64,000 nt of DNA, from NCBI RefSeq assembly GCF_965641715.1, contig NZ_OZ282453.1. The stretch is one strand, 5' to 3'. Source of the DNA: Escherichia coli (lineage in GTDB: Bacteria > Pseudomonadota > Gammaproteobacteria > Enterobacterales > Enterobacteriaceae). Below, in pieces: positions 9,001-12,000 of this stretch (within the stretch, counting starts at the first letter, position 1; every line of letters starts with the position of its first letter). A program made the position numbers.

Positions 9001-12000
9001 ATTAATGTTGGTGGAATTATTTTAGAACCTAAAGGAAAAAATACAGCTCCAGCTGTTGCCCTTTCAGCCTTTTTTGTAAATAGATGTGAGATAAACTTAG
9101 AGAAGGATCCTGTCTTATTAGTGTTAGCTGCGGATCATGTTATTGATGATACGGATGGATTTTTAGCTGCAATAAATAGTGCTTTACCTCTTGCGCAGAA
9201 CGGTATGTTAGTGACTTTTGGTGTTGTTCCTACTCATCCTGAAACAGGATATGGATATATCCAGACTGGCAAGAAAATAATAGATAATTCATTTGAAATT
9301 ATTGATTTTAAAGAAAAGCCATCATTAGAAAAAGCGCAGGAATATTTAGATAGTAAAAACTATTTATGGAATAGTGGTATGTTTATGTTTCGTGCGTCTA
9401 CTTATTTAAATGAGTTGAAAAAATTCAGATCTGATATTTATGATGCTTGCTTTGATGCCATGAATTCCTCAAGTTTTGATTTTGATTTTGTTCATGTAAA
9501 TAAAGAAAATTTTTCATTGTGCTTATCTGAATCAATCGATTATGCTGTCATGGAGCAAACAGATAAAGGTGTTGTTGTCCCCATTGATATAGGATGGAGT
9601 GACATTGGTTCGTGGTCAGCTCTTTGGGATGTTTGTAGTAAAGATACTAATAATAATGTTATTAAAGGGGATGTCATAGATCATGATTCTCATAATTGTT
9701 TTATCATCGCTGAGACATCCTTAGTTACTACTATTGGTCTTAATAATCTTATTATTATTCAAAGCAATGATTCACTACTTATTGCTGACCGTCATTCTTC
9801 CCAAATGGTGAAGAATATAGTTGACGAACTCAAGGAAAAAGAACGTCATGAATATTATTTCCATTCGGAGGGATATCGGCCTTGGGGAAAATATAAAACA
9901 ATTGATACCGGGGAAAACTATCAAGTAAAACGAATTACTGTGAGGCCTGGAGGGAAACTATCAATGCAAATACATTATCATCGTGCTGAACATTGGGTTA
10001 TTGTCTCTGGTACAGCAAGAGTTATAGTTGATGGCAATACCAAATTGCTTAGAGAGAATGAATCTATATACATTCCTCAGGGATGTATTCATAGTTTAGA
10101 AAATCCAGGAGAAACTCCTCTCGATATAATAGAGGTTCGCTCAGGTGTTTATCTTGAAGACGATGATGTTGTGCGCTTTCAATAGTAGCTCTATTTTTTT
10201 TACAACAAACGTTTTGTTATAAAAATTATCATATGAAACAATTAACCTGCTTTAAAGCCTATGATATTCGCGGGAAATTAGGCGAAGAACTGAATGAAGA
10301 TATCGCCTGGCGTATTGGGCGCGCCTATGGCGAATTTCTCAAACCGAAAACCATTGTGTTAGGCGGTGATGTCCGCCTTACCAGCGAAACCTTAAAACTG
10401 GCGCTGGCGAAAGGTTTACAGGATGCGGGAGTCGACGTGCTGGATATTGGTATGTCCGGCACTGAAGAGATCTATTTCGCCACGTTCCATCTCGGCGTGG
10501 ATGGCGGCATTGAAGTTACCGCCAGCCATAATCCGATGGATTATAACGGCATGAAGCTGGTGCGCGAGGGGGCTCGCCCGATCAGCGGTGATACCGGACT
10601 GCGCGACGTCCAGCGTCTGGCAGAAGCCAACGACTTTCCTCCCGTCGATGAAACCAAACGCGGTCGCTATCAGCAAATCAATCTGCGTGACGCTTACGTT
10701 GATCACCTGTTCGGTTATATCAATGTCAAAAACCTCACGCCGCTCAAGCTGGTGATCAACTCCGGGAACGGCGCAGCGGGTCCGGTGGTGGACGCCATCG
10801 AAGCCCGCTTTAAAGCCCTCGGCGCACCTGTGGAATTAATCAAAGTACACAACATGCCGGATGGCAATTTCCCCAACGGTATTCCTAACCCGCTACTGCC
10901 GGAATGTCGCGACGATACTCGTAATGCGGTCATCAAACACGGCGCGGATATGGGCATTGCCTTTGATGGCGATTTTGACCGCTGCTTCCTGTTTGACGAA
11001 AAAGGGCAGTTTATTGAGGGCTACTACATTGTCGGCCTGTTGGCAGAAGCATTCCTCGAAAAAAATTCCGGCGCGAAGATCATCCACGATCCACGTCTCT
11101 CCTGGAACACCGTTGATGTGGTGACTGCCGCAGGCGGCACCCCGGTAATGTCGAAAACCGGACACGCCTTTATTAAAGAACGTATGCGCAAGGAAGACGC
11201 CATCTACGGTGGCGAAATGAGCGCCCACCATTACTTCCGTGATTTCGCTTACTGCGACAGCGGCATGATCCCGTGGCTGCTGGTCGCCGAACTGGTGTGC
11301 CTGAAAGGGAAAACGCTGGGCGAACTGGTACGCGACCGGATGGCAGCATTTCCGGCAAGCGGTGAGATCAACAGCAAACTGGCGGACCCCGTTGAGGCGA
11401 TTAACCGCGTGGAACAGCATTTTAGCCGTGAGGCTCTGGCGGTGGATCGCACCGATGGCATCAGCATGACCTTTGCCGACTGGCGCTTTAACCTGCGCAC
11501 CTCCAACACCGAACCGGTGGTGCGCCTGAATGTGGAATCGCGCGGTGATGTGCCGCTGATGGAAGAAAAAACAAAACTTATTCTTGAGTTACTGAGTAAG
11601 TAATTCAGTAATTTCATATAAATGGGTTTTAAAAAACGGAAAAGATGAGATATCCGGTGTGGTATAGCCAAGGTAATGCTATTCAGTATCTCTATGAGTG
11701 AGTTAACATCTATACCACATTTAAGCCGCACACTTGGCGGTGACCACCCCCTGACAGGAGTAAACAATGTCAAAGCAACAGATCGGCGTCGTCGGTATGG
11801 CAGTGATGGGGCGCAACCTTGCGCTCAACATCGAAAGCCGTGGTTATACCGTCTCTATTTTCAACCGTTCCCGTGAAAAGACGGAAGAAGTGATTGCCGA
11901 AAATCCAGGCAAGAAACTGGTTCCTTACTATACGGTGAAAGAGTTTGTTGAATCTCTGGAAACGCCTCGTCGCATCCTGTTAATGGTGAAAGCAGGTGCA

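Follow-up and report, generated by a model that had tools for sequence, protein, structure and literature searches.

The O-antigen locus studied here raises the question of why two neighboring genes, manC and manB, differ so abruptly in base composition, and at which base the boundary between their histories lies. The locus occupies the first 17 kb of a 64-kb stretch of Escherichia coli DNA (the window), is of the typical E. coli form, and is followed by the his operon. Its gene order is rmlA, rmlC, wzx (a Polysacc_synt flippase), a glycosyltransferase, a presumed wzy, a WbbJ-like acetyltransferase, three glycosyltransferases, manC, manB, gnd, ugd, an NAD-dependent epimerase (minus strand), wzzB, and hisIE. 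Of the traits of a Wzx/Wzy-type O-antigen cluster, it has the location between galF and gnd, a low GC content, the rml and man genes, a Polysacc_synt flippase, and glycosyltransferases, of which there are four. The presumed wzy (3748 to 5064, 438 amino acids) matches no Pfam or NCBIfam family, and its assignment is by position only. RefSeq labels wzx merely as a “flippase,” and one member of the cluster is annotated from Shigella dysenteriae.

The window stretch is 99.6 to 100% identical to the pig isolate E. coli 1504D004 (NZ_CP149565.1), and its O cluster is rare, being found in just 6 of 5,426 complete E. coli genomes. In 1504D004, the O locus is immediately preceded by the wca (colanic acid) cluster, which includes a cpsB and a cpsG of its own. 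The cpsG gene (L001:15310-16680) is 22 kb upstream of manB (L001:37344-38714, just before gnd) and in direct orientation, and both copies and the interval between them are intact. The cpsG of the window's strain was read from this near-identical genome, its own copy lying outside the window. The features on which the argument turns are as follows.

8785 to 10185, plus strand: manC (GDP-mannose pyrophosphorylase/mannose-6-phosphate isomerase), the last AT-rich, serogroup-specific gene
10186 to 10232, plus strand: manC-manB spacer, 47 nt, serogroup specific, GC content of 0.19
10233 to 11603, plus strand: manB, whole open reading frame, starting 47 nt after manC
10233 to 10240, plus strand: 5′ junction zone (manB start codon and first codons), where cpsG homology starts
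10240 to 11565, plus strand: cpsG-type manB body, 1,326 bp, 54.9% GC
10670 to 11207, plus strand: internal manB patch, a secondary recombination tract in which strains sharing this O cluster differ
11566 to 11603, plus strand: AT-rich 3′ tail of manB, the last 12 codons and stop codon, not cpsG-like
11604 to 11698, plus strand: manB-linked portion of the manB-gnd spacer, restricted to genomes with an O-locus manB
11699 to 11766, plus strand: gnd-proximal portion of the manB-gnd spacer, also present in E. coli without an O-locus manB
11767 to 13173, plus strand: gnd (6-phosphogluconate dehydrogenase), which is conserved and flanks the O-antigen locus on its downstream side

An earlier note on this DNA had described an AT-rich manC followed, 47 bp later, by a GC-rich manB; the coordinates are right, and the step is the largest in the 64 kb. 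The GC content is 0.346 for manC (0.231 at third codon positions [GC3]) and 0.27 to 0.34 for the other central O-antigen genes, compared with 0.539 for manB (GC3 of 0.615). With flanking windows of 300, 500, and 1,000 bp, GC rises by 0.20 to 0.21 (∼4 standard deviations) at 10280 to 10310. A two-segment likelihood model of positions 8785 to 11603 places the change point at 10304 (2-lnL support interval, 10256 to 10317), with a log likelihood ratio of 61.6 and a P value of ∼1e-28, or ∼3e-25 once corrected for the positions tried. In frame, GC3 in 30-codon windows is 0.17 to 0.20 over the last part of manC, reaches 0.43 in the initial manB window, and then lies at 0.5 to 0.8. The profile is therefore not the smooth one that would have argued against a junction, and codon usage also differs: the root mean square distance in synonymous codon usage to the window's his operon is 0.076 for manB and 0.314 for manC. 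The compositional change point falls ∼25 to 70 nt past the homology junction (10233 to 10240) because the first 72 nt of cpsG are themselves AT rich (32% GC in cpsG and 36% in the window's manB). A reverse step of −0.19 (300-bp scale) at 11560 marks the 3′ end of the GC-rich segment within manB; this second junction, at 11565/11566, is absent from the earlier note.

Searches for functional elements around the step gave no signal. The manC-manB spacer folds no better than its shuffles (z = −0.06), so there is no sign of a structured element in it. Across 9900 to 11900, promoter and terminator scans gave counts not above those of shuffles, and an Rfam scan at permissive thresholds gave no match.

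The two genes also have wholly different nearest relatives, which bears out the suggestion that they differ in origin. The manC product matches TIGR01479 over its full length (702.3 bits; cutoff, 372.95), with NTP_transferase, beta-helix, and MannoseP_isomer domains all found, and is accordingly a ManC. It scores below the cutoff of the colanic-type CpsB equivalog NF012004/PRK15460 (642.4 bits; cutoff, 859) and is only 57% identical to E. coli CpsB; judged on these scores, manC is therefore not of the colanic acid type, in contrast to manB. This manC occurs at ≥99% identity in 6 of the 5,426 complete genomes, and all remaining E. coli manC and cpsB genes have 60 to 80% DNA identity to it. The best protein matches outside the serogroup are from Lelliottia (67% and 66%), followed by metagenomic proteins (59 to 64%) and then by Shewanella, Vibrio, Citrobacter, and other named genera (55 to 58%).

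ManB, on the other hand, matches the “phosphomannomutase CpsG” family NF011943/PRK15414 with 1,044.3 bits (cutoff, 801) over residues 1 to 455 of 456 and contains Pfam domains PGM_PMM_I to IV, the last ending at residue 440. It is 97% identical to the E. coli CpsG/ManB cluster (19,650 members) and 85 to 88% identical to CpsG of other Enterobacteriaceae. The relationships of ManC and ManB, whose congruence would have spoken against separate histories, are clearly incongruent. The downstream gnd is conventional (NF006765, 774 bits; GC content of 0.501).

At the DNA level, the manB body is 95.4 to 97.3% identical to nine cpsG alleles. Its identity to the cpsG of 1504D004 is 95.6%, and the nearest cpsG allele, that of K-12 (97.3%), belongs to another lineage. 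The GC content of the body (0.549) is that of cpsG (0.550) and not that of manC (0.346). In pairwise alignment with the 1504D004 cpsG, identity is ∼96% from the ATG to 11565, and there is no similarity beyond either side. The gene thus combines a location between galF and gnd, apart from the wca cpsG, with a body that is at least 95% identical to cpsG, as expected for a chimeric manB. The GC-rich partner in the junction is the species' own colanic acid cpsG gene pool and not an unspecified foreign lineage.

The 5′ edge of this homology is close to the start codon. The open reading frame begins ATGAAACAATTA in the window and ATGAAAAAATTA in 9 of 9 cpsG alleles, and C10239 is the sole difference in the first 15 nt between the window's manB and those alleles. 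BLAST homology to the manB genes of other serogroups likewise starts at 10222 to 10243. The manC-manB spacer resembles neither the cpsB-cpsG spacer nor the sequence before manB in eight other O clusters; among the nine clusters, each manB upstream region is confined to its own O cluster or to a set of related ones. Because homology both to cpsG and to the manB genes of other serogroups starts by the manB start codon, the alignments place a recombination junction at the spacer/start-codon boundary, in keeping with the earlier note, which had put a breakpoint in or near the spacer. The start itself varies among serogroups: the O6, O7, O157, and O88 manB genes have their own, non-cpsG first 2 to 4 codons, and those of A38, O43, and O125ac begin exactly as cpsG does. 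Homology to cpsG ends sharply on both sides of the segment. The non-cpsG remnant is a 38-bp tail on the 3′ side, beyond 11565/11566; on the 5′ side it is weak in the window's serogroup, at one base, and clear in O6, O7, O157, and O88.

On the 3′ side, the 38-bp tail has a GC content of 0.237 and differs from the K-12 cpsG at 18 of 38 nt. The C terminus that it encodes nevertheless aligns without gaps, collinearly, to the CpsG end ...MEARTRTLLTLLNE* and lies beyond the last PGM_PMM domain. The tail is common to seven other serogroups. Eight of nine O-locus manB alleles have the 3′ boundary at the very same point, codon 444/445, and a common AT-rich tail and spacer; the O157 allele diverges a few codons earlier and ends in an AT-rich tail of its own. 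Still other lysine-rich tails occur on CpsG-like database proteins. From the manB body through the tail and the 163-nt spacer to the beginning of gnd, the sequence is shared, at 95.6 to 97% identity, by ∼440 genomes of many serogroups (O6, O7/B, O43, O68, and O125ac, plus an O88-type cluster). The tail and the next ∼95 nt were found only in 434 genomes with an O-locus manB, at 91 to 100% identity; genomes without an O-locus manB match just the last 45 to 68 nt before gnd (query positions 134 to 201 of 11566 to 11766).

A search with a degenerate DNA pattern for the tail peptide, covering one genome per species, gave a single hit, a GC-rich manB of Citrobacter braakii in which the tail is identical at 11 of 12 amino acids. 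The body of this gene is equally distant (89% amino acid identity) from the E. coli and Citrobacter CpsG, and the hit therefore points to no low-GC ancestor.

Exchange between the paralogues was examined with a small, hand-picked sample of nine O-locus manB and nine cpsG alleles. For BL21(RP), the O7 example, the region is rearranged and without an adjacent cpsG, and only manB and manC were used. Fixed differences between manB and cpsG number 0 in the 1,318-bp core versus 8 in the 38-bp tail. Of 180 polymorphic sites, 90 vary in both genes and 152 fall on third codon positions. Alleles of manB are on average 96.2% identical to one another and those of cpsG 96.5%, and the mean between the two genes is 96.3%. 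The Hudson-Kaplan minimum number of recombination events (Rmin) is 50. In a neighbor-joining tree of the 9 + 9 alleles, manB and cpsG are intermingled, as expected if they exchange sequence, and the two genes form a common pool. The pattern is general for E. coli O clusters in which manB adjoins gnd: in all eight other O clusters fetched, a low-GC manC (0.35 to 0.47) adjoins a manB with a GC content of 0.54.

Identity between manB and cpsG of the same genome is typically 96%, rising to 98.8% in A38 and 99.85% in Nissle, and these two pairs point to recent intragenomic conversion. In the window's genome type, the pair is just 95.6% identical, and its sequence therefore shows no sign of recent conversion between manB and cpsG.

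The mosaic manB alleles that had been anticipated are found within the window's own serogroup. Strain 40EC carries the window's O cluster, diverged by ∼0.17% across 9.5 kb, and its manB differs from that of the window at 26 sites, of which none is in 10233 to 10669, 24 are in the internal patch at 10670 to 11207, and 2 are further on. Against the 0.17% background, 24 single-nucleotide polymorphisms in 538 bp has a probability of 6e-26. The 40EC version of the patch is 99.3% identical to cpsG of genomes without an O-locus manB. For the window's version, a donor search gave no match above 97.2% outside the serogroup.

Taken together, the junction is very probably the 5′ edge of a cpsG-type segment inside the O-antigen cluster, with manB a chimeric gene whose interior is of the cpsG type. 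All DNA up to and including manC and the 47-nt spacer is low-GC, serogroup-specific sequence of foreign origin, and the tail would be the AT-rich remnant of a different, low-GC manB. Homologous recombination or gene conversion may have put cpsG sequence in place of the interior of this ancestral O-locus manB, the tract ending where similarity stopped, i.e., a few codons past the start and just past the last PGM/PMM domain. Subsequently, the paralogues would have kept exchanging segments within genomes and between strains, in concerted evolution that homogenized the interiors and left the nonhomologous ends of manB protected. In the window, the serogroup cassette may have become attached to a chimeric manB that was already in place, with the join at the start codon or no more than a few bases from it. 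The data show directly the step in composition, both ends of the homology, the common gene pool, the secondary mosaic patch, and the incongruence of ManC and ManB; how the events were ordered, which way they ran, and that gene conversion was their mechanism are what we infer from these patterns.

A simpler history, in which the manB beside gnd is an old, complete cpsG copy resident in the conserved flank and the low-GC cassette was inserted upstream of it, explains the window's 5′ junction equally well and is partly compatible with the chimeric reading there. The 5′ remnant, at most the single base C10239, fits interior replacement and cassette insertion beside a resident cpsG-like gene alike; the cpsG-like starts of the A38, O43, and O125ac genes also suit a resident copy, as does the joint occurrence of manB, tail, spacer, and gnd in the ∼440 genomes. 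The presence of the tail in C. braakii indicates, in addition, that the arrangement is old. It is the tail that argues against this history: at 24% GC it has about half its bases unlike cpsG yet remains collinear with it and similar in protein, which is what the end of a divergent, low-GC manB should look like. A complete cpsG copy likewise does not account for the non-cpsG first codons kept by the O6, O7, O157, and O88 genes, the different O157 tail, or the other lysine-rich tails of CpsG-like proteins. Furthermore, a full-length, native low-GC manB is known in another E. coli O cluster (36% GC, SD2019180; PMC10606467). We therefore consider a complete resident duplicate unlikely.

Import of manB from a GC-rich foreign species, independently of cpsG, would account for a GC content unlike that of its neighbors but is very improbable, as manB has 95.6 to 97.3% DNA identity and common polymorphisms with E. 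coli cpsG, CpsG proteins of other Enterobacteriaceae are just 85 to 88% identical to it, and its codon usage matches that of the window's own his operon. That the step is nonhistorical, a product of chance or of selection on expression or amino acid composition acting on two genes of common origin, found no support and is scarcely credible, given that the difference is concentrated at synonymous third positions (GC3 of 0.23 versus 0.62), that the step is the largest in the window, that the corrected P from the likelihood ratio is ∼1e-25, and that the nearest relatives of manC and manB are entirely different.

For the chimeric manB, the 3′ boundary may be viewed in a second way. A hairpin spans the manB stop codon. 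It is conceivable, but distinctly doubtful, that the tail, the following ∼95 nt, and this hairpin constitute an element under selection where the O-antigen operon ends, perhaps with an mRNA-end or regulatory role. If so, the 3′ boundary would be more than a passive loss of homology, as the element would halt further spread of conversion, and it could affect expression of manB or gnd.

The phenomenon itself is already known, from O157, from E. coli B and O7, and from the deleted O14 cluster, and the window adds a further case, in which the junctions are mapped at single-base resolution. Iguchi et al. (2011; PMC3158064) report, from Samuel et al. (2004), that the O157 manB has been replaced by the colanic acid gene, and describe it as >95% identical to cpsG and as varying more from strain to strain than the remainder of the cluster; this extra variability is attributed by Iguchi et al. 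to gene conversion with cpsG. As in the window, a GC-rich O157 manB (0.541) stands beside a low-GC manC (0.376). In contrast to the window, where manB is the last gene before gnd and has the common gnd-adjacent tail and spacer, the O157 manB is followed by wbdR/perB and an insertion sequence remnant, starts with codons of its own (ATGAAATCT), and ends in another AT-rich tail.

In E. coli B, manB and cpsG are 96% identical direct repeats ∼23 kb apart, and the long-term evolution experiment recorded repeated recombination between them (Raeside et al. 2014, PMC4173774; bioRxiv 10.64898/2026.06.14.732165). E. coli B/O7 shares with the window the manB tail and the spacer that leads to gnd, and its upstream manC is likewise low in GC (0.347). 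The differences are that the recombinants of E. coli B have the interval deleted and carry cpsG-manB hybrids, while the window type, judged from its near-identical genome, retains both copies and the interval, and that the O7 manB is two codons shorter at its 5′ end. O7 was also the subject of work by Marolda and Valvano (1993). The O14 O-antigen cluster was deleted via recombination between two manB genes (Liu et al. review, PMC7685785). That event relies on the same high similarity of paralogues as is found in the window type, but its outcome was loss of the O cluster and not a mosaic gene.

A parallel exists outside the species. Jensen and Reeves (2001, Microbiology 147:599) reportedly found that the O-cluster manB of Salmonella enterica is colanic-like in sequence and GC content and its manC O-cluster-like; there, both the species and the gene pool differ from those of the window. 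Galactose-initiated Salmonella groups keep a low-GC manB and manC (36 to 41% GC; PMC3715488).

The result leaves current understanding unchanged and matters mainly for annotation and typing. Automatic annotation calls the O-cluster manB of the window and of ∼440 other E. coli genomes “colanic acid biosynthesis phosphomannomutase CpsG.” The sequence of manB is uninformative on serogroup, and the gene should be left out of O typing and of trees built from O clusters. Conservation across serogroups extends from manB through its tail and the spacer into gnd, so that the serogroup-specific cassette has its practical downstream limit at the manB start. Finally, with 96%-identical direct repeats 22 kb apart, the O-antigen locus is prone to deletion and gene conversion.

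The low-GC region of the O-antigen locus is not bounded abruptly on its upstream side (window 1-2800), where GC content falls gradually from rmlA (0.43) through rmlC (0.36) to wzx (0.33). Comparison with 40EC, a strain with the same O cluster, revealed 31 differing sites within the first 1 kb (rmlA) and hardly any beyond, and the rmlA-side edge looks like a 5' counterpart of the manB junction.

Within the cluster, a presumed O-antigen polymerase gene was assigned from the position expected for wzy.
3748-5064, presumed wzy, an ORF of 438 aa
Neither Pfam nor NCBIfam gave a match for this product, which is labeled a hypothetical protein in RefSeq, where its start lies 12 nt downstream of the ORF start used here. 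One member of the flippase's 90% protein cluster (P0001, wzx; 1589-2827) carries the annotation of a putative Shigella dysenteriae O-antigen transporter, so a Shigella serotype may be the counterpart of the O cluster in the window.

The window and the near-identical reference genome 1504D004 (NZ_CP149565.1) differ at 7 positions over the first 14.5 kb of the window, against 57 in 14.5-17.1 kb (epimerase gene and wzz). On these difference counts, a further recombination boundary lies close to the 3' end of ugd. Strain A38 has ugd followed directly by wzzB, whereas in the window an additional gene intervenes.
14654-15658, minus strand, NAD-dependent epimerase gene (GC 0.424), between ugd and wzzB and on the opposite strand to them
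about 15828-15920, short pseudogene fragment adjoining the epimerase gene, annotated in the reference genome
A large rearrangement of the locus is indicated in E. coli BL21(RP) (L005, NZ_CP084683.1), the laboratory strain that supplied the O7-type manB and manC: after manC come clpX, clpP, and tig, and not the remainder of the O-antigen and wca region.

The AT-rich tail of manB runs into a hairpin.
11587-11597 and 11603-11613, stems of an 11-bp hairpin (loop 11598-11602) that spans the manB stop codon
The predicted fold of the 201-nt manB tail and manB-gnd spacer (11566-11766) had a z of −2.63 and surpassed 200 of 200 shuffled sequences. The stem sequence varies between the serogroups compared, and no obvious compensatory changes were found across them.

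A similar tail occurs outside E. coli, in Citrobacter braakii ATCC 51113.
L011 11416-12783, minus strand, GC-rich manB, with the tail match at 11426-11460
The C-terminus of its product (14 residues) shares 11 of 12 residues with the tail of the window ManB, and its body is 89% identical to E. coli CpsG, the colanic-acid phosphomannomutase, and equally (89%) to Citrobacter CpsG. Different lysine-rich C-terminal tails, past the conserved ...RLNVES motif, occur on four CpsG-like phosphomannomutases of E. coli, Salmonella, and Xenorhabdus (database proteins P0157, P0167, P0211, and P0248). The diversity of these tails suggests that chimeras of the manB kind arose repeatedly and independently.
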